A stretch of DNA of 64,000 nt from sequence record ON540300.1; one strand, 5' to 3'. Below, piece after piece: positions 1,731-52,437 of the stretch (positions are counted from its first letter, which is position 1; each line of letters begins with the position of its first letter). Origin of the DNA: Escherichia phage ECOH1. Made by a program: the position numbers and the translations under genes. A model generated the notes under the pieces. It made no database searches and was not told the origin of the DNA. It worked only from the letters and a program-made list of their open reading frames with translations.

Positions 1731-3332
1731 ATGGACTTAAATGCTGTTAAGCAGAAGCGAGTGGAAGATGTTAGGAAAGTCCTAGCTGGAGAGTTGGGGC
1801 TTTCTGATGAAGTAAAAGAAATTATCAAATCATTCGGTAAAGACCCCTCTAAATTCCTTCCAACTCAAATTCTGACTTTATTAAGATACACACCAGACCA
1901 AGTTAGACTTATCTTCAAATTGATGACTGATAAGAACTATGTAGCCCCTCAGCCGGGTTCTCAAGAGGTCTTTTTAAATACTAATGCTGACTTGGTTCTC
2001 TATGGTGGTGCTGCGGGTGCTGGTAAGACTGCTGCATTGTTGATGGATTCTTTAAGATTTATTGAAGACCCTAACTATAATGCTGTGTATTTCCGTCGAA
2101 ACACGACACAGTTACAAGGTGGTTTATGGCCTGCTGCAAAGAAACTATTTGGTAAGTTTGGTGGGGTTCCTCACGAGCAGAAGATGACTATCACATTCCC
2201 TTCTGGGGCCACTATCAAGTTTACCTACCTAGAACTTGAAAAGCACGCTGAAGGTCATCAGGGTATTGAATACTCAGCTATTTACTTTGACGAAGGTACG
2301 CACTTCTCTGCTTCACAGATTTCATACCTACAGACTCGTCTACGTTCTGGGGCTGAAGGTGATTCATACATGAAGATTTCTATGAACCCAGACAGAGACC
2401 ATTTTATTTACGATTGGGTAGAGCCATTCTTAGATGAAGAAGGTTACCCAGACCCTGAAAAGTGTGGTCGTATTCGTTGGTATGTAATGAATGATGGTGT
2501 TATGGTTTCTGATTGGGAGAGAGACAAGATTCTTGAAATGTTTCCTCTTGAGATTCCTCAAACATATACATTCATCTCTGGTACGATTGATGATAACCCA
2601 ATTCTTGACTTCTTAGAACCTAAATATCGTGGTAAGTTGGAAAACAACACCCCTGTAAACGTTGCAAGACTTCGTTTCGGTAACTGGAAGGCTCGTGCAG
2701 AAGGTTCAAACTATTGGCAAAGACAATGGTGTGAAATTGTTGATTCACTTCCAGAAGATGTATTCGATGTCAGAGCATGGGACTTAGCAGCAACTTTACC
2801 ATCTGAGATTAACCCTAATCCAGACTGGACAGCAGGTGTTAAGATGGGTAAATCTAAAAAAGACGGTTGCTATTATATCATTGATGTAGTAAGATTTAGA
2901 GATAGACCCTCTGGAGTCGAAACACAAATTAATTTGACTGCTGAAAGTGACGGTAAGCGAACTGGTATTTTTATCCCTCAAGACCCAGGCGCTGCTGGTA
3001 AATCCTACGCAACATCCCTCATCAGGAAACTTGCCGAGAAAGGTTATCGAGCAAGGGCTAAACCAACAAATAAAGATAAAGTTACCCGATTTGCGGGGTT
3101 TTCTGCTGCTTCTGAAGCTGGACTTGTAAAAGTCTTGAGAGGTAGTTGGAACGAAGCTTACTTCCAAGAACTTGAAGGTTTTTGTGGTGATGGTAAAACT
3201 AAAGATGACCAAGTGGATGCTACCAGTGATGCTTTCAACAGTCTTAACGAAGTTAAATTATTCAAGCCACCATCAATGGGTGCTCACACAGACTTAGTGA
3301 GAGGAAACCCATATGAGGGGCTTAGACGTTGA
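1731..3332 (+). CDS. terL: terminase large subunit
   Basis: Walker A-like GGAAGAGKT near N-terminus, ~530 aa, position at head of structural module; start moved to ATG 1731 with RBS ggaggtg (track start 1716 is TTG). Confidence 0.85.
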   Translation: MDLNAVKQKRVEDVRKVLAGELGLSDEVKEIIKSFGKDPSKFLPTQILTLLRYTPDQVRLIFKLMTDKNYVAPQPGSQEVFLNTNADLVLYGGAAGAGKTAALLMDSLRFIEDPNYNAVYFRRNTTQLQGGLWPAAKKLFGKFGGVPHEQKMTITFPSGATIKFTYLELEKHAEGHQGIEYSAIYFDEGTHFSASQISYLQTRLRSGAEGDSYMKISMNPDRDHFIYDWVEPFLDEEGYPDPEKCGRIRWYVMNDGVMVSDWERDKILEMFPLEIPQTYTFISGTIDDNPILDFLEPKYRGKLENNTPVNVARLRFGNWKARAEGSNYWQRQWCEIVDSLPEDVFDVRAWDLAATLPSEINPNPDWTAGVKMGKSKKDGCYYIIDVVRFRDRPSGVETQINLTAESDGKRTGIFIPQDPGAAGKSYATSLIRKLAEKGYRARAKPTNKDKVTRFAGFSAASEAGLVKVLRGSWNEAYFQELEGFCGDGKTKDDQVDATSDAFNSLNEVKLFKPPSMGAHTDLVRGNPYEGLRR

Positions 3333-3348
3333 TAGCTAGGTGAGAAGA

Positions 3349-4815
3349 ATGGCAGATATTACAGAAACACAAGAAAGCTTACCACCATTTAGAATGGGTG
3401 AAGTAGGTTCTTTGGGTCTGAAGGTTAAGAATGGAAGAATCTATGAAGAACCTCGTCAGGCACTAAGGTTCCCTGAAAGTATTAAAACTTTCCAATTAAT
3501 GATGCGTGACCCTGCTGTAGCAGCATCTGTAAATATTATTAAGATGTTTGTCAGAAAAGTCAACTGGAGATTCGTACCTCCAAAGGGAAAAGAGCAAGAC
3601 CCTAAAATGCTTGAAAGAGCAGACTTCTTTAATTCTTTAATGGATGACATGGAGCATGATTGGGCAGATTTTATTAACTCTGTAATGTCATTCTGCACTT
3701 ATGGGTTCTGTGTTAACGAAAAGGTTTATAAGAAACGTCAGGGTAAAAAAGGAAAGTATCAGTCAAAATTTGATGATGGTCTAATTGGGTGGGCTAAATT
3801 ACCAATCAGAAACCAGTCAACACTTGATAAGTGGTATTTTGATGAAGACTTTAGAAAAGTTACTGGTGTCAGACAAAATCTAAGAAATGTTTCACATATT
3901 GCTGGAGCAATTAATCTTGGAGAAAGACCACTAACAAGAAAACTTCCACGAGCTAAATTCATGCTGTTTAAGTATGATGATGAGTATGGTAACCCAGAAG
4001 GTCGTTCACCATTACTTAATGCTTATGTACCGTGGAAGTATAAAGTACAGATTGAAGAGTACGAAGCTGTTGGTGTTTCAAGAGACTTGGTAGGTATGCC
4101 AAAGATTGGTTTACCACCAGATTATCTTGATGAAAATGCAGAGCCTGAAAAGAAAGCTTTCGTACAATACTGCAAAACTGTTGTTAATGATATGATTGCT
4201 AATGACAGAGCAGGTTTAATCTGGCCTAGATATATCGACCCAGATACTAAAGAGGATATTTTTGAGTTCTCATTAGTTTCTAGACAGGGTGCTAAAGCGT
4301 ATGACACAGGTTCTATCATTGACAGATATTCTAAGCAGATTATGATGGCATTTATGTCAGATGTTCTTGCTATGGGTCAGTCAAAATATGGTTCATTCTC
4401 TCTTGCAGATTCTAAGACAAGTCTATTAGCGATGTCAGTAGATATTCTGCTGAAGCAAATTAAGAACGTAATTAACCGTGATTTAGTTGCACAGACTTAT
4501 GCTCTTAATATGTGGGATGACGAAGAACATGTACAAATCACATATGATGATATCGAAACTCCAGACCTTGAAGCAATTGGTTCTTATATTCAGAAGACTG
4601 TTGCAGTAGGTGCTTTGGAAGTTGACAAAGAGCTATCTAACAAACTTAGAGAGCATATTGGTCTCCCTCCTGCTGATGAGTCTCAGCCAGTATCTGAAAA
4701 GCTTTCTCCAAATAGCCAAAGCCGCTCAGGAGATGGTTATAAGACCGCTGGAGAAGGTACTGCAAAGACACCTTCAGCGAAAGACCCAAGCACAGCAAAT
4801 AAGGCAAATAAATAA
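3349..4815 (+). CDS. portal protein (putative)
   Basis: ~490 aa ORF directly after large terminase; start moved to ATG 3349 with RBS aggtgag. Confidence 0.6.
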   Translation: MADITETQESLPPFRMGEVGSLGLKVKNGRIYEEPRQALRFPESIKTFQLMMRDPAVAASVNIIKMFVRKVNWRFVPPKGKEQDPKMLERADFFNSLMDDMEHDWADFINSVMSFCTYGFCVNEKVYKKRQGKKGKYQSKFDDGLIGWAKLPIRNQSTLDKWYFDEDFRKVTGVRQNLRNVSHIAGAINLGERPLTRKLPRAKFMLFKYDDEYGNPEGRSPLLNAYVPWKYKVQIEEYEAVGVSRDLVGMPKIGLPPDYLDENAEPEKKAFVQYCKTVVNDMIANDRAGLIWPRYIDPDTKEDIFEFSLVSRQGAKAYDTGSIIDRYSKQIMMAFMSDVLAMGQSKYGSFSLADSKTSLLAMSVDILLKQIKNVINRDLVAQTYALNMWDDEEHVQITYDDIETPDLEAIGSYIQKTVAVGALEVDKELSNKLREHIGLPPADESQPVSEKLSPNSQSRSGDGYKTAGEGTAKTPSAKDPSTANKANK

Positions 4816-5658: not shown

Positions 5659-7005
5659 ATGAGTTCGAATATCTTCAGACTTGCTGATAGATTATTCAAC
5701 CAACCTTTACTAGCCACTGAATCATTAGCTCACTCAGCAGCAACTTATGTGAATAACAGATTGCTGGGTGATGTCCAAGCAGCAGTAAACTTTGATAAAC
5801 CCAAAGGTGAAGCAAGAAGTCTTTTAAAAGTAAAAGATGACATTGCTATTATTCCTATTATGGGTGGTTTAACCCATCGTATGACATTCATTGATGCAAT
5901 GTGTACAGGTGGATTAAGCTCTTATGAAGGTTTGCGTAGAGGCTTTGACGAAGCTTTAGCAGATGAGTCAATTAAGACTATCGTTCTGCATATTGATTCT
6001 GGTGGTGGTGAAGCTTCAGGTTGCTTTGAATTAGCACGTCACATTATGGCTTCAAGAGGCCAAAAGAAAATTATTGCTTATGTAGATGAGTTCGCTTGTT
6101 CCGCTGCATATGCTCTTGCATCTTCTGCTGAAGAAATTATTGCATCACCAGATGCAGATGTTGGTTCTATTGGTGTAATCATGGTTCATCAGGAATTAAC
6201 TAAGGCATTTGAAAAGAATGGCGTAACAATTAACGTCATCAAAGCTGGTGAGTTTAAAGGTATGGGTTCACCATTCCAAGCACTCTCAGAAGAAAGCAAA
6301 GAAAGACTTCAAAAGAGAATTAATGATACCTACGCAACCTTTACAGGTTTTGTAGCTGAATCTCGTAATCTCTCTGAAGAAGCTGTAAAGAATACTGAGG
6401 CGAATGTTTATTCTGCTCAGGAAGCTCTTGAACTTGGTTTAATTAACTCAATCATGTCTCAAGATGATTTCTTAAATTACTTACAAGGTTCTGAAGAGGC
6501 TCCTGTAAGTTTAAACGTTAACAATTCAGGTGAAGAAATGACTGAACAAGAAAAGCAAGAACTAGAAGCTTTGCGTCTTCAGGTTGCTCAAATGAAAGCT
6601 AAAGAACAGGAAGCTGCTTTGTCAGATTTGACTAATAAGATTTCTGCTTCTGCTGAAGCTTTTGGATTTGATGCAAAAGAAGCTGCAACGACTATTTTAG
6701 GTGCTGGTCTTGATAACCCTCTGAGTGTTCTGTTTATGAATGCTATGGAAGGTGCTAACCAGAAACTTAATGAAACTATCGCATCCCATGCTTCTGCAAT
6801 GGAAGAAAAAGAATCAGAAATTACCAAGCTGAAAGAAACTGCTGGTGCTGTTCTTGAACATTCCAACGCTATGGAAGAAGTGGGTAATGACGGCGAAGCT
6901 GATTTGGTTGAAGAAGAAAAAGAACCAGCTAAGAATGCTTCCGAAGACACCGCTGAACAACGCAAACTGGCTCTCCAGAATGCTCTAAAATCTCTTATCA
7001 AATAA
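5659..7005 (+). CDS. prohead protease (S49/ClpP-like) fused to coiled-coil scaffold-like C-terminal region
   Basis: Motifs IPIMGG, DSGGGEASG, AYVDEFACSAAYALAS typical of S49-type peptidases; C-terminal half is Glu/Ala/Lys-rich and coiled-coil-like. Confidence 0.65.
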   Translation: MSSNIFRLADRLFNQPLLATESLAHSAATYVNNRLLGDVQAAVNFDKPKGEARSLLKVKDDIAIIPIMGGLTHRMTFIDAMCTGGLSSYEGLRRGFDEALADESIKTIVLHIDSGGGEASGCFELARHIMASRGQKKIIAYVDEFACSAAYALASSAEEIIASPDADVGSIGVIMVHQELTKAFEKNGVTINVIKAGEFKGMGSPFQALSEESKERLQKRINDTYATFTGFVAESRNLSEEAVKNTEANVYSAQEALELGLINSIMSQDDFLNYLQGSEEAPVSLNVNNSGEEMTEQEKQELEALRLQVAQMKAKEQEAALSDLTNKISASAEAFGFDAKEAATTILGAGLDNPLSVLFMNAMEGANQKLNETIASHASAMEEKESEITKLKETAGAVLEHSNAMEEVGNDGEADLVEEEKEPAKNASEDTAEQRKLALQNALKSLIK

Positions 7006-7016
7006 GGAACACAACA

Positions 7017-7394
7017 ATGGCATATCAAGGTTTTACTAAGTTAGGTAAAAGAGAACCTCTGAATGATATCATTCTTTGGGAACAGGTTACCCCAACAGGC
7101 CACTCTCGTAAAGAGTACACCCCACAGGCATCTACAGAATATCGTGTAGGTGAAGTTCTGAAAGCAGACGGTACTAAGGTTACAGCAGGGCAAGAAGCTC
7201 AGGCTGACTCTGTATGTATCGTTAACTTCTACGCAGACTCACAACTGTCTTATCATGGTCAGTTGAAAGTTGTTGGTATTTACCGCGACGCAGAACTGAA
7301 AGACATGCTTACTCTTGAAGCAAGCGTTGACGCTGCCGAAGTCAAGAAAGCTCTGGCTGCCAAAGGTATTGATTTCGTACCAACTGGCCTGTAA
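7017..7394 (+). CDS. hypothetical head protein
   Basis: 125-aa ORF between protease and capsid gene. Confidence 0.45.
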   Translation: MAYQGFTKLGKREPLNDIILWEQVTPTGHSRKEYTPQASTEYRVGEVLKADGTKVTAGQEAQADSVCIVNFYADSQLSYHGQLKVVGIYRDAELKDMLTLEASVDAAEVKKALAAKGIDFVPTGL

Positions 7395-46646: not shown

Positions 46647-46904
46647 ATGAAAGATTTAATAGAAAAACATGAGCGACCTATATACTTGCTCCATAAGCCT
46701 CGGAAAACGATGTACTATGTGAGTAGCACAGACATGATGATAAAACAAAATGATGACTCATGGGTCGATGGCGTCTCTTACATCTTTACAGCAGATGGTA
46801 AAATCTACGCAAGACCTTATGAGATGTTTAACAAAGAAAACTGGGAAGTTTTAGACAGAAAACAAGCCCTAGAAATGATAAAGAAAGGAGAAATCACGCT
46901 ATGA
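46647..46904 (+). CDS. hypothetical protein between nrdA and nrdB
   Basis: ATG 46647 with RBS ggagag (track start 46563 overlaps nrdA). Confidence 0.4.
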   Translation: MKDLIEKHERPIYLLHKPRKTMYYVSSTDMMIKQNDDSWVDGVSYIFTADGKIYARPYEMFNKENWEVLDRKQALEMIKKGEITL

Positions 46905-47974
46905 TTAACCAGCACCCAATCTTTTTAGGTGGTGAGAGAAAAACTTTTGACTCACTTAATAAACACTACCCAAAAATCTTTGAACTTTATAAACAACAAA
47001 AAGCACAAGACTGGTCAGAAGATGAGTTCCCTTTTGAACAATCACGTCTTGATTTTGAGAGTGTCCCAGCATCAATGTCAGGTGTAATGCTTGAGATTCT
47101 TAAGTGGCAGTGGGAAGCAGATACCCAAGTTGCTAAGAGCTTGGCATTTGCCTTTGCACCCTTTATCTCTGATGACATCTATGCAACTGCAATTATGAAG
47201 CAGTCTGAGATTGAAAACCTACATGCTCTTACTTACTCAGAGATTGTAAGGCAATGTATTAAAAACCCTGAAACCATCTTAGATGAGATTAACCAGAATG
47301 TTGCTGTGCAAGACCGATTAAAAACTGTGAATCGTGTTCTTGAAGAATTACTGGATGAAGGTATAAACTACCGTCTGAGTTATGTGCGTGATTCACTTCT
47401 GGACAAAGACCCTTTACACTTCCATAAAGTGATTCTGAAAGGTCTATTTGCAGTGACTGCACTGGAAGGTATATCTTTTATGGCATCCTTTGCATGTACT
47501 TTTGCACTTGATGCTCAAGATAAATTTCAGGGTATTGCTCAAGCTGTCCAGAAAATTATGCTTGACGAAATCCTTCACACTAAAATTGATATTGAAGTTT
47601 TAAAAGAAACTTTAAGAGATGATGAGTGGCAGAAAGCTTTTCAACAAATTCTTCCAGAGATTAAAGTAATCTTAGATGAAGTAGTTGAAAGTGAAGAGAA
47701 ATGGTCGTATTATATCTTCTCCGAAGGACGTGCTGTAGTTGGCCTAAATACAAAGCTTCTTCATGAGTGGGTTTACTATAATGCTGCCCCACTGTATGAT
47801 ATGTTTGGCATTCAAAGAGATTTTGTAGCTCCTAAAGAACCACCTTTGAAATATATGATTAAGAAGATGGAAATTGATAAAGAGCAGAATGCTAATCAGG
47901 AGCAACAGAATGGCGCGTACCTATTGAATACTGTTGTAGATGATTTGAATAGTGGATTTTTAGAGGTTCCTTAA
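46901..47974 (+). CDS. nrdB: ribonucleotide reductase class I small subunit (putative)
   Basis: 357-aa ORF coupled downstream of nrdA; size and context. Confidence 0.6.
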   Translation: MINQHPIFLGGERKTFDSLNKHYPKIFELYKQQKAQDWSEDEFPFEQSRLDFESVPASMSGVMLEILKWQWEADTQVAKSLAFAFAPFISDDIYATAIMKQSEIENLHALTYSEIVRQCIKNPETILDEINQNVAVQDRLKTVNRVLEELLDEGINYRLSYVRDSLLDKDPLHFHKVILKGLFAVTALEGISFMASFACTFALDAQDKFQGIAQAVQKIMLDEILHTKIDIEVLKETLRDDEWQKAFQQILPEIKVILDEVVESEEKWSYYIFSEGRAVVGLNTKLLHEWVYYNAAPLYDMFGIQRDFVAPKEPPLKYMIKKMEIDKEQNANQEQQNGAYLLNTVVDDLNSGFLEVP

Positions 47975-48216
47975 TGACTTATGTAATTTACTCCAAAGCT
48001 GGATGCCCTCAGTGTGAGACTGCAAAGAATTTTGCAAAAGCTCGTGGTATTGGCCATGTTGTGAGAATGTTAGGGCAGGATTATGAACTATCAGACCTGA
48101 TGGAGATTGCACAGATGCCAGTTCGTCAGATGCCATTCATCATGAAAACTGATGGACAAAACCTAAAACCTGTTGGGACGCTACAGAATTTTATGGCAGA
48201 GGTGAATAATGCTTAA
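47974..48216 (+). CDS. glutaredoxin-like protein (NrdH-like)
   Basis: 80 aa with CxxC motif YSKAGCPQCETAK; context in nrd cluster. Confidence 0.55.
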   Translation: MTYVIYSKAGCPQCETAKNFAKARGIGHVVRMLGQDYELSDLMEIAQMPVRQMPFIMKTDGQNLKPVGTLQNFMAEVNNA

Positions 48217-48422: not shown

Positions 48423-48444
48423 GGGTCTCTTCGGAGACCTTTTT
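48423..48444 (+). terminator. intrinsic terminator
   Basis: ggtctc-ttcg-gagacc followed by T5. Confidence 0.6.
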
Positions 48445-48463: not shown

Positions 48464-49660
48464 ATGAACAAAGTACAGATTATTAAAAAGAGTGGCTCAC
48501 TCGAAGAACCTGATATCAAAAAAGTTTTAGCAGCAGTCACAAAGTCAGCTAATAGGGTTGGTTATAAAGAGCTTCCACCAGATGTTACTCAAGCTCTTGA
48601 GTCAGCATTTATGAGGATTCTGGTAAAATCTACTAAGCAGAATAATTTACTCGTTTCAGTAAATGATATTCACAGTATTGTTGAGGGTGCTTTGGCAGAA
48701 GTCAATCACGAGATTTATGAGTCTTACTCAACATATAGAAATTACCGTAAAGAAGTTGCTCAAAATTGGGATGAACTTTACCAGAAGACCAAAGATACAC
48801 TCTTCTTAGGTGACAGAGAGAATGCTAACTTTGACAGCAGTTTAATTTCTACAAAAGGTTCAATTATTCGTGGTTATCTGACTAAAGAAATCTTTAAACA
48901 GTACCATTTAACACCAGAGGAACTTGAAGCCATTGAAAAAGGGTTTATCTATATCCATGATTTAAGAGACCTAATTTTTGGTGGTATCAACTGTTGCCTG
49001 TTTGACATTGGTAAAGTCCTGAAAGGTGGCTTTGAAATGTCTGGCATCGAATATTGTGAACCAAAGTCTGTACTGTCAGCCTTACAGGTTATTGGTGATG
49101 TAGTTCTTTCAGCAACTGCACAGCAATTTGGTGGCTTTACTTTAGCAGAGATTGATAAGGTACTTGTACCGTATGCTAAGAAGTCTCTACGCTATCATGC
49201 TGAGAAAGCAGCATCTTATGGTATTCCTAAAGAACATTACCACAATTATGTCATGGAGCAGCTACAGATTGAATTAACTCAAGGCTTCCAGTCACTAGAG
49301 ATGAAACTGAATACTGTACCATGTAGTCGTGGGGATTTTGCATTCACAACTTTGACATTCGGGTTACTTGACTCAGATATGTCCAATGAAGATAACCGAC
49401 TGCAATACATGATTGCAAGTACTCTCCTAGATGTTCGTATGAATGGACAAGGCAAGAGCAAGAAACCTGTTGTATTCCCTAAACTGGTTTATATCTATGA
49501 CCAGAAGAGACATAATGAGAATATCTGTCAAGGCCAACTGTACAGCAAAGCTATTGAGTGTTGCTCTAAAGCGATGTATCCAGATTTTTTAAGTGTATCT
49601 GGTCATGGTGCTGTAGCAGAGGCTTTTGAGCGTTCTGGTAAGGTAATTTCACCGATGGGT
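48464..49660 (+). CDS. nrdD: anaerobic ribonucleotide reductase NrdD, exon 1
   Basis: ORF ends at a TAA that lies at the start of the intron; proposed exon end ...VISPMG. Confidence 0.7.
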
Positions 49661-49975
49661 TAACAAGCTCTATAGCTCATCTAAAACGTGCCTAAACAGG
49701 GAAACTCTACAGGTGTAGACAATCCTGTGCTAAATGATGTACGATGTAAGAAACTATATAACATAGGAGTCTTACATGCCAAATAACTTCGAACATGAAT
49801 TTGAATACATCTAAATGCCGAACGACTAACCGTGATGAATGTAGCGGTGTAGGGTCAAGCGACTCGAAATGGTACGCTACTTAGAAATAAGTAGAAGATA
49901 TAGTCTGGACTTACTGGCGACAGTAAGCAGCTTGAATAAAGCGGGTAAGCTTAGCGAACTTACCTGAACAACAAG
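49661..49975 (+). mobile_element. group I self-splicing intron (IA2-like core), ORF-less, interrupting nrdD
   Basis: 315 nt (multiple of 3); core elements ctaaacagggaaactctacaggtgtagacaatcctgtgctaaat, aaatgccgaacgactaaccg, gtagggtcaagcgactcgaaa, agatatagtctgg, terminal ctgaacaacaag ending in G; exon 1 ends in U; these match group I core elements of T4 td-type introns as recalled from memory. Confidence 0.7.
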
Positions 49976-50923
49976 TGTAGAGCATTTTTATCACCATACC
50001 ATAACGAATATGGTGAAGAGTTTTATGTAGGTCGTGCAAACATTGGTGCTGTATCATTGAACTTACCAATGATTTACCAGTATTCTAAAGAGAATGGTTT
50101 AGATTTCTGGAAAGAGCTTGATAAGTACCTAGAGATGATTCGTAGTTTCCATAAGAAACGCTATGAAATGATTGCCAATATGCCAGCAAGTTCTAACCCT
50201 CTTGCATTTACACAAGGTGGTCTGTACAAAGGAACTAAGAAGCCTACTGACAGGGTTGGTTGGGATATTGTGAAGTCCTTCACAGCTTCTTTTGGGGTTA
50301 CTGCGCTTGATGAGCTATCTGTTCTTGCTGAAGGTAAACGACTTCATGAAGTTGGAAGCTGTAGTTTTGCATACGATGTTCTGGAATACATCAACATGAA
50401 AACTGAAGAGTTTAAAAATGAAGATGGCTTCTTATATGCAGTTTATGGCACTCCAGCAGAATCACTTTGTGGAACTCAGCTAAAACAGTTCAGAGATATG
50501 TTTGGTGTTATCAAAGGTGTTTCTGATAAGGAATACTTTACAAACAGTTTCCATATGAATGTTGCAGCAGATATTACACCATTTGAGAAGCAGGACTTAG
50601 AAGAACCTTTCTTCCATATCTGTAGAGGTGGTAGAATCCAGTATGTCAGAGTAGCTAACCCAGAAAACTTACCAGCACTTAAAAGTTGTATTACAAGAGG
50701 GATGTTGAAAGGTTTCTATCAGGGACTTAACTTTGACCTAGCAATCTGTGAACATTGTGGTAACAGACCAAAGGCTGATGTTGAAGAATGTGAGGTTTGC
50801 CATTCACACGATATCTCTGTGATTAACAGGGTGTGCGGGTACTTGTCATTCACAAAAATTAAAGGTCAGTCTCGAATGAATGACGCTAAGATGGCAGAAA
50901 TTAAGGATAGGGTTTCTATGTAA
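49976..50923 (+). CDS. nrdD: anaerobic ribonucleotide reductase NrdD, exon 2
   Basis: Same frame as exon 1; begins CRAFLSPYHNEYG; contains CxxC zinc-ribbon cysteines and glycyl-radical motif RVCGYL near C-terminus. Confidence 0.75.
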   Translation, partial: CRAFLSPYHNEYGEEFYVGRANIGAVSLNLPMIYQYSKENGLDFWKELDKYLEMIRSFHKKRYEMIANMPASSNPLAFTQGGLYKGTKKPTDRVGWDIVKSFTASFGVTALDELSVLAEGKRLHEVGSCSFAYDVLEYINMKTEEFKNEDGFLYAVYGTPAESLCGTQLKQFRDMFGVIKGVSDKEYFTNSFHMNVAADITPFEKQDLEEPFFHICRGGRIQYVRVANPENLPALKSCITRGMLKGFYQGLNFDLAICEHCGNRPKADVEECEVCHSHDISVINRVCGYLSFTKIKGQSRMNDAKMAEIKDRVSM

Positions 50924-50933
50924 AACTTGACAT

Positions 50934-50970
50934 GGTGGTGTGAGTCTTGATAGGCTTGCATCACCTTTTT
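50934..50970 (+). terminator. intrinsic terminator-like hairpin
   Basis: ggtggtg-loop-catcacc followed by T5. Confidence 0.45.
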
Positions 50971-50985
50971 ATTTGGAGTTACATT

Positions 50986-51951: not shown

Positions 51952-52437
51952 ATGAATTACATGGAGATTAGACCATTTGACACAGCTAATGGTGAAGGGG
52001 TTCGTGTAAGCCTCTTCGTAGCTGGCTGCAAACATCACTGTGAAGGCTGCTTTAACAGGGAGTCTTGGAAATTTAATGCTGGTAAAGAGTTTACTTATGC
52101 AAACCTCTACGGCATCATTAAGTTAATGGATGATAATGCTATCAGTGGACTGTCAATACTTGGTGGGGAGCCTCTGGATGACAGAAACATTCAAGAGGTC
52201 ACTAATATATGCAAGCATATTAAAACCGTTTATCCAGAGAAGTCTATCTGGCTCTGGACAGGTTTTCAGTTACACGAAAAAATTCACCTAGATGTGATGA
52301 AATACGTTGACGTGGTGATTGATGGTAAGTATGATTCATCTAAACCAACAGTTAAGCCGTATCGTGGTTCTGATAACCAAAACCTCTGGAGAAAAGAGTA
52401 TGGGTGGCAAGGTGACTGTCAGTGGAGAGCCGAGTAA
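51952..52437 (+). CDS. nrdG: anaerobic ribonucleotide reductase activating protein (radical SAM)
   Basis: CxxxCxxC motif CKHHCEGCF; size 161 aa; nrdD context. Confidence 0.7.
   Translation: MNYMEIRPFDTANGEGVRVSLFVAGCKHHCEGCFNRESWKFNAGKEFTYANLYGIIKLMDDNAISGLSILGGEPLDDRNIQEVTNICKHIKTVYPEKSIWLWTGFQLHEKIHLDVMKYVDVVIDGKYDSSKPTVKPYRGSDNQNLWRKEYGWQGDCQWRAE

Follow-up and report, generated by a model that had tools for sequence, protein, structure and literature searches.

Close known relatives of the element analyzed here include two group I introns of phage T4. One interrupts td, the gene for thymidylate synthase, is the model IA2 intron and encodes the endonuclease I-TevI. The other interrupts nrdD (sunY), where it lies between gene nucleotides about 538 and 1571 and is accompanied by I-TevII. 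According to published work in T4, translation reaching but not entering the intron favors splicing in vivo, and insertion at the most conserved active-site codons of a gene is typical of mobile introns and inteins.

Felixounavirus comprises the Felix O1-like myoviruses of Salmonella and E. coli. For one of them, UAB_Phi87, a 'split nrdD interrupted by a homing endonuclease' has been described (Bardina et al. 2016, PMC4837284, citing Moreno Switt et al. 2013), and the paper on phage SPJ41 lists 'two introns' among the ncRNAs of that phage. The BASEL record of JohannRWettstein (Bas63) already joins both nrdD exons; where the intron carries no ORF, most records annotate two CDSs. A search of the full-text literature, with few subscription journals covered and therefore weak as an absence, found no paper in which the nrdD element is identified as a group I intron or its splicing is tested.

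Here, we describe nrdD in a 64,000-nucleotide stretch of Escherichia phage ECOH1 (ON540300.1; hereafter, the window). Judging from sequence and comparative features, we consider it very probable that positions 49661-49975 are a group I intron that splices itself and belongs to the T-even td/sunY (IA2-type) family. The subgroup name IA2 follows the classification of td and sunY. Features are on the + strand unless stated otherwise.

The nrdD locus

The nrdD region of the window (48464-50923) has matches in 304 phage records, the best being Felixounavirus genomes at 95-97% identity. As judged from the ORF list and a comparison with Felix O1, its neighborhood is the usual Felix O1 nucleotide-metabolism block. 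nrdB (46901-47974, from the ORF list) is followed by a glutaredoxin gene (47974-48216) and a small membrane protein gene, both 5' of nrdD, and small ORFs separate nrdD from nrdG (51952-52437). Elsewhere in the window, six tRNA genes are clustered at 14-1286 (Leu-taa, Gln-ctg, His-gtg, Phe-gaa, Ser-gct, Cys-gca), on which ARAGORN and Rfam agree.

The gene itself is in two parts. Exon 1 (48464-49660), delimited by the ORF list, by Pfam matches on the joined protein and by colinearity with Felix O1 nrdD, opens with ATG 48464 and comprises 399 codons that encode an ATP-cone and an N-terminal portion of the NrdD barrel. Its final codons are CCG ATG GGT, with T49660 as the last base, and the next codon is TAA (49661-49663). 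Exon 2 (49976-50923) takes up the NrdD frame with TGT AGA GCA, the beginning of CRAFLSPYH, and consists of 315 codons plus a stop (50921-50923). Its first codon, TGT at 49976-78, specifies Cys400, and the codon for the glycyl-radical Gly is at 50837-50839, within RVCGYL. Both exons are intact and share 94-97% identity with those of relatives. A preliminary description, made from the letters and ORF translations of this DNA alone, had proposed that the NrdD frame stops at this TAA and resumes in the same frame, RVCGYL included, beyond 315 nt that end in G, with U as the last exon nucleotide. The re-entry at 49976, T49660 and G49975 agree with it on every point.

GC-rich hairpins flank nrdD on both sides. 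The one just 5' of the gene (48424-48439) has T-rich flanks on both sides and gives a terminator-like match on the - strand. The other (50934-50975) has a 14-bp stem and a T-run immediately 3' of the nrdD stop, and is terminator-like on the + strand by consensus scan only. The same kind of scan detected no + strand terminator-like site between the two exons, so the exons should be co-transcribed.

It should also be noted that the 3' end of nrdD (within 50500-50923) varies sharply among relatives. Over the last ~100 nt (CDS nt 2041-2145), there are 13-18 differences per 60 nt compared to Felix O1 and Bas63, and 0-1 differences per 60 nt compared to REP5. We interpret this divergent end as a recombination mosaic boundary, independent of the intron.

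Identification and boundaries of the intron

Among the checks named in the preliminary description are an Rfam covariance model and an alignment of the joined protein to NrdD; the first is treated here and the second with the joined protein, and both came out in its favor. The Rfam model RF00028 (Intron_gpI) matched at 54.2 bits, only about 4 bits over its gathering score of 50, with an E-value of 5.6e-11. The match coordinates, 49576-49927, are not the ends of the intron, since P1/P2 of the model are placed in exon 1 and the match stops before P9.1/P9.2. Relatives that contain a homing-endonuclease gene within the intron score only 38.6-38.9 bits because the insert breaks the covariance model. 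No further intron was detected besides the RF00028 match when all 64 kb of the window were scanned with Rfam (E ≤ 0.1). A blastn search with the interval gave matches, at 60-80% identity, to td-type introns in about 350 records from T4-like and other phages. The phage collection searched does not contain the exact 315-nt sequence; the best match there is 98.4% identical.

The assignment of 49661-49975 as a 315-nt, td/sunY-like group I intron with IA2-type peripheral helices draws on the Rfam match, on intron-less alleles for the boundaries, on the pairing of each helix and on covariation. The predicted intron begins with the in-frame TAA and ends ...CTGAACAACAAG, with G49975 as its last base. 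By sequence alone the boundary could slide by 1 nt (GGGT|T...AAG|T); the requirement for a terminal G resolves this to 49661-49975.

Intron-less alleles confirm, at the DNA level, that precise excision would restore nrdD, as they are colinear with the joined exons. Felix O1, wV8, ULIM8, CL1 and about 120 others align unbroken over the junction. When 200 nt from each side were joined into a synthetic junction, Felix O1, wV8, VpaE1, ULIM8 and many others matched it unbroken, with 88-94% identity. At 2145 nt, the joined CDS is exactly as long as the uninterrupted Felix O1 nrdD, to which it is 94.1% identical position by position without an indel. The predicted ligated DNA reads ...CCGAUGGGU|UGUAGAGCA..., or ...AUGGGU|UGUAGAGC... 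as RNA, and GKVISPMGCRAFLSPY is encoded across the junction in 8/8 compared alleles, including Felix O1, wV8, ULIM8 and CL1. The junction that had been predicted from the window alone, VISPMG|CRAFLSPYH, is identical to what these four uninterrupted alleles encode.

Predicted structure and covariation

The structure was modeled on the homologous T4 td and sunY introns, and each strand was checked by script. In the window, pairing is complete in every helix (P1, P3-P9, P7.1, P7.2, P9.1, P9.2 and P10); P2 is absent, as it is from the T4 sunY sequence as we read it.

The internal guide sequence (49667-49681) is shared by two helices. Its 3' part (49675-49681, GCUCAUC) pairs with the end of exon 1 (49654-49660, GAUGGGU) to form P1, with 7/7 pairs, and its 5' part (49667-49674, GCUCUAUA) pairs with UGUAGAGC at the start of exon 2 to form P10, with 8/8 pairs. 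The splice-site wobble is U49660.G49675, and a U.G pair is invariant at this position in 6/6 aligned introns.

The first part of the predicted catalytic core (49687-49876) contains P3 (49687-92/49871-76, CGUGCC x GGUACG), P4 (49696-701/49723-28, ACAGGG x UCCUGU), P5 (49706-10/49715-19, UCUAC x GUAGA), P6 (49729-30/49817-18, GC x GC) and P6a (49736-41/49806-11, GAUGUA x UACAUC). It also contains the 5' strand of P7 (49824-28; GACUA x UAGUC), P7.1 (49829-32/49845-48, ACCG x CGGU) and P7.2 (49852-56/49861-65, GGGUC x GACUC). The second part of the core and the 3' domain (49877-49975) comprise P8 (49877-83/49888-94, 7 bp with a GAAA loop), J8/7 with the 3' strand of P7 (AGAUAUAGUC, ending at 49905), P9 (49910-16/49921-27, 7 bp with a GCGA loop), P9.1 (49930-33/49939-42, 4 bp), P9.2 (49943-49/49959-65, 7 bp) and a 3' tail that ends at G49975. 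All four core strings quoted in the preliminary description are present, at 49692-49735, 49813-49832, 49849-49869 and 49895-49907.

An unconstrained fold of 49651-49985 has a free energy of -90 kcal/mol (z = -3.88 compared to shuffles). The minimum-free-energy fold recovers P3, P4, P5, P6, P6a, P7.1, P7.2, P8, P9, P9.1, P9.2 and P10; P7 is missing from nested folding because it forms a pseudoknot with P3.

To this we add covariation in a MAFFT alignment of six introns: those of the window, Bas63, Vibrio F88, T4 td, T4 sunY and Aeromonas phiA009. Measured on these six sequences only, with the structure drawn on the window row, 89.1% of cells are paired, compared to 36-42% in controls with the partners displaced by 1-3 columns. 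Both sides of the pair have changed in a compensatory manner in 40/79 pairs, and 0/500 shuffles reach any of the five measures used. P3 is 100% paired, with 5/6 of its pairs compensated. P7 is invariant in the six introns and so provides no evidence of covariation; the blocks AACGACTA and GAAGATATAGTCTG are likewise invariant. Pairing is lower (59-81%) in P1, P10 and P6a, which MAFFT misregisters in some rows.

Loss of the endonuclease gene

Three states of the nrdD site are found in Felixounavirus: about 120 records lack the intron, about 30 have an intron of 315/316 nt, and 61-63 have a 742-nt intron with an HNH endonuclease gene. The gene is still present in about two thirds of intron-bearing relatives, and its product is a 154-aa HNH homing endonuclease (Pfam HNH_3; gp68 in Bas63). 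When the window is aligned with JohannRWettstein and REP5, the short form is the 742-nt form minus a single block of 426 nt (142 codons), and is otherwise the same base for base. The cut falls at a 3-nt AAT microhomology (49782-84 in the window; ATGCCA-AAT-TAT... ...CAT-AAT-AAC). The roughly 30 ORF-less records align to the window intron in a single piece at 97.5-98.4% identity, indicating one common deletion junction. We conclude from these alignments that the ORF-less state is secondary, a clean in-frame deletion of the HNH homing-endonuclease gene: a 426-nt deletion at the AAT microhomology removed it from the P6a loop.

What is left of the gene in the window is a relic in the P6a loop (49765-49814), with the ribosome-binding site AGGAG at 49765-69, the start codon ATG at 49776 and TAA at 49812-14. 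It encodes MPNNFEHEFEYI followed by the stop, and its 12 codons are three N-terminal codons and the last nine codons of the endonuclease gene. The last codons of the full-length ORF overlap the 3' strand of P6a. The relic AGGAG also lies in the loop of a 7-bp hairpin (UGUAAGA ... UCUUACA; 49743-49775) that ends at the relic AUG; this hairpin may be what remains of an element that controlled translation of the endonuclease gene before its loss. Beyond the relic, the window copy contains no intron-encoded homing-endonuclease gene, as no ORF of more than 12 codons starts inside 49661-49975. The absence of such an ORF had been noted in the preliminary description and stands as an observation, but it does not reflect the original state of the intron, from which the HNH gene has been deleted.

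The length of the window intron, 315 nt, results from a G-run (49943-45) that is one base shorter than in the 316-nt intron of REP5 and others. This 1-nt deletion lies between P9.1 and P9.2 and no pair is lost. The preliminary description had noted that 315 is a multiple of 3. The arithmetic is right for this copy, but it has no meaning: most ORF-less relatives have 316 nt, which makes the multiple incidental, and the intron in any case opens with a stop codon. For the same two reasons, we rejected a read-through or intein-like insert, an idea that follows from the multiple-of-3 length.

Loss of the endonuclease gene also fits a different history, in which the element is a splicing-dead remnant in decay and nrdD is a pseudogene. 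A pseudogene would be tolerable because the phage also encodes aerobic NrdAB; with nrdB adjoining at 46901-47974, the aerobic enzyme would be available. The 1-nt deletion at 49943-45, private to the window copy, could be a further sign of decay. However, pairing is perfect in all core helices, and the invariant blocks J6/7-P7 and J8/7 have been preserved. Both exon frames are open and the catalytic residues are conserved, with differences from relatives that are mostly synonymous. Furthermore, the ORF-less intron recurs at 97.5-98.4% identity in about 30 independent isolates, which is unlike decay. We therefore regard a dead remnant as improbable and retain the reading of a self-splicing intron that has lost its endonuclease gene.

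The joined NrdD protein

Joining the exons gives a protein of 714 aa. Pfam NRDD covers residues 119-712 in one stretch (E 3e-114), in addition to an ATP-cone at 5-97. Alignment to a solved NrdD structure, PDB 9d3x, shows no gap through the junction (pmgcrafls / pmgcrsflq), and a tblastn comparison with T4 nrdD pairs SPMGCRAFLS with SPMGCRSFLS, where T4 is contiguous (VSPMGCRSFLS). The intron falls between Gly399 and Cys400. Cys400 aligns with residue 290 of T4 NrdD, which we take, from the T4 NrdD structure (1H78 family), to be the thiyl-radical cysteine on the finger loop. This alignment places the intron right at the most conserved active-site codons. Its position adjoining the catalytic cysteine codon is one more case of a mobile intron located in the most conserved coding sequence.

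The position of the interruption also bears on whether nrdD could be a truly split gene, with residues 1-399 and a fragment from about residue 428 made separately and assembling, and with the intervening RNA playing no part. Two CDSs are annotated in most deposited relatives, and split phage RNR genes whose products reassemble have been reported (PMC3653736). However, there is neither a start codon nor a ribosome-binding site at 49976. The first in-frame start of exon 2 is TTG 50057, 27 codons downstream, and ATG 50069 is also used in annotations; a CDS from either omits residues 400-427 or more, so a separately translated C-terminal fragment would lack the catalytic Cys400. In addition, the intervening sequence is a complete predicted ribozyme whose guide matches both exons. 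We consider a split gene very unlikely, less likely still than a dead remnant. Least likely of all is a chance Rfam resemblance, with the 315 nt being some other insertion such as the remnant of a free-standing endonuclease cassette: the score is near threshold, but the E-value (5.6e-11), the precise insertion, its terminal G and its U.G wobble, and the blocks common to the T4 td and sunY introns all count against it, and the covariation and full helix pairing effectively refute it.

Proposed splicing pathway

If the self-splicing reading is correct, nrdD would be transcribed as a single pre-mRNA, as expected for an intron of this class. Ribosomes translating exon 1 would stop at the TAA with which the intron begins, presumably leaving the ribozyme free to fold. 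An in-frame TAA also opens the T4 td, T4 sunY and F88 introns. The guide at 49667-49681 would pair with the last 7 bases of exon 1 (P1) and the first 8 bases of exon 2 (P10). Exogenous guanosine held in P7 would then attack after U49660, and the freed 3'-OH of exon 1 would attack after the terminal G49975. Ligation is predicted, from the sequence of the exons, to yield the 714-aa NrdD with Gly399 and the catalytic Cys400 rejoined. We infer splicing activity and the role of the in-frame stop from conserved features of the family; the boundaries, the core structure with its covariation, the polymorphism of intron and endonuclease gene among relatives and the integrity of the joined protein are observed.

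Mobility and the exon-2 tract

Alleles that have or lack the intron were compared across the 300 nt that flank the insertion site on either side, using the window, REP5, Bas63 and pSJ21 as intron-containing alleles and Felix O1, wV8, ULIM8 and CL1 as intron-less alleles. There are 10 fixed differences between the two groups of four, and none of them lies in the 300 nt of exon 1. Eight are substitutions within a short tract at the beginning of exon 2 (49978-50014), at +3, +9, +12, +18, +24, +26, +33 and +39. In the first exon-2 interval, the two groups differ on average by 7.0 per 30 nt, compared to 1-3 elsewhere, and divergence within the intron-containing group is 0.0 there. At +3, intron-containing alleles have U (C in empty alleles), which completes P10. 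The tract fits co-conversion of flanking exon sequence during homing, but also substitutions that protect against the HNH endonuclease or a footprint of its target.

With no endonuclease of its own, the window copy should be unable to start its own homing. It could be mobilized in trans by a co-infecting relative that contains the endonuclease gene. As it interrupts the target site of the HNH enzyme, it should also be immune to that enzyme.

A broader reading is possible, although we hold it only tentatively and doubt it more than we favor it. Gly|Cys would be a recurrent homing site of td/sunY introns, the intron would derive from the sunY site by reverse splicing, the ORF-less copy would persist by blocking the HNH enzyme, and the exon-2 tract would mark where that enzyme binds or cuts. 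The guide core GCUCAU pairs with AUGAGU in T4 and with AUGGGU in the window; two nrdD sites thus fit nearly one guide, so that, speculatively, an intron might switch between them by reverse splicing. Recurrent use of the site may span unrelated lineages, namely Felixounavirus, Vibrio F88/F93 and an uncultured phage in IMG/VR. If true, the ORF-less copy would still block the target of an HNH enzyme borne by competing sister phages.

Annotation and significance

In most of the roughly 90 Felixounavirus genomes that contain the element, nrdD is listed as two truncated CDSs, some with 'hypothetical proteins' inside the intron. The correct product is predicted to be a single 714-aa NrdD. Since Felixounavirus phages are widely proposed for biocontrol of Salmonella and E. 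coli, correct gene models matter. Three records under other names, MG065664/MG065668 ('Campylobacter phage A132/A126') and GU169904 ('Staphylococcus phage SA1'), also contain a Felixounavirus nrdD at 93-95% identity; MG065664/MG065668 include the ORF-less intron. All three are probably mislabelled or contaminated.

Knowledge of group I introns is unchanged by this element. Its value lies in the correction of annotation and in a natural series for the homing-endonuclease life cycle. The genus offers a clean succession of an empty site, an intron with its HNH endonuclease and an intron with the endonuclease deleted, and thereby a compact system for the cycle of endonuclease gain, degeneration and loss and for intron-mediated competition between co-infecting phages.

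Comparison with known introns

A relative within the genus is the 742-nt nrdD intron of, for example, JohannRWettstein/Bas63, UAB_Phi87, FSL SP-010 and Mushroom. Site and ribozyme are the same, and the two introns are 97-98% identical once the ORF is set aside, but the longer one keeps the 154-aa HNH gene, from which the window copy lacks 426 nt (142 codons).

Outside the genus, the same site is occupied in Vibrio phages F88/F93, where an intron interrupts nrdD between the same Gly and Cys of the PMGC motif (YMG|CRSLLSPW) and has an ORF in the P6a position, annotated in F88 as an HNH endonuclease. In F88 (2390-3230 of stretch L007), the segment from the 3' strand of P6a to that of P3 is 86% identical to the window intron, a rough figure, like all our per-segment identities, from simple local alignments. 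In contrast, its exon and guide sequences, P8 and P9.1/P9.2 differ, and its host belongs to an unrelated phage lineage. The F88 P1 is AUAUGGGU x GCUCAUGU, with a guide that matches its own exon bases and is compensated relative to the window. Its P10, GAUUGGCA x UGCCGAUC, is similarly compensated relative to GCUCUAUA x UGUAGAGC in the window. In our view, an F88 guide that tracks its own exons is the strongest comparative evidence for a functional guide sequence in these introns.

We also scanned IMG/VR for introns at this site with the pattern ATGGGTTAA N5-20 GCTCAT, which returned at least 120 stretches. Among the matches listed, almost all were due to chance; four had a group I core downstream, and only contig 3300027715_000016 was clearly an nrdD intron at the same site. 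This contig (L041, about 2385-3500) shares the Gly|Cys junction (STMG|CRTLLG) and has an ORF in the P6a position; by eye, no convincing P10 was found in its intron. Another stretch, L125, requires a one-base shift of the junction to read PMG and then C-A-G. L125 (5492-5724 and about 6290-7110) and L109 (1703-1979 and 2287-2549) each have two group I introns within a few kb.

The preliminary description had likened the core elements to those of T4 td-type introns, and the sequence blocks of the intron and the helices P7.1/P7.2/P9.1/P9.2, present as in T4 td and sunY, argue for that class. The resemblance to T4 sunY includes the nrdD host gene family, matching core blocks AACGACUA and GAAGAUAUAGUCUG, a form of P7.1 with the loop ...UGAUGAAUGUA..., the lack of P2, the in-frame TAA start, the guide core GCUCAU (49675-49680 in the window) and a 5' segment that is about 75% identical on a rough alignment. 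Despite these similarities, the T4 nrdD intron corresponds to about residue 280 here, about 120 codons upstream of the 399/400 site. Its ORF encodes a GIY-YIG enzyme, I-TevII (as annotated in the T4 record), and starts 3' of P9, whereas that of the Felixounavirus relatives encodes an HNH enzyme in the P6a loop. As insertion site, endonuclease family and ORF position all differ, we rejected identity with, or orthology to, the T4 nrdD intron.

T4 td is alike in its P3-P9 architecture with P7.1, P7.2, P9.1 and P9.2, in an identical P6/P6a internal loop (UAAAU/UAAAU), in a 3' tail that is about 75% identical (again roughly), and in an exon that ends GGGU before an intron that starts UAA. Its I-TevI ORF also lies in the P6a loop and extends at its 3' end into the 3' strand of P6a. 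It is unlike the window intron in having a P2 hairpin, a thymidylate synthase host gene and an endonuclease of the GIY-YIG rather than the HNH family. Set beside these systems, the element is an ordinary, well-formed td/sunY-family intron of a textbook class, present in about 90 deposited Felixounavirus genomes.
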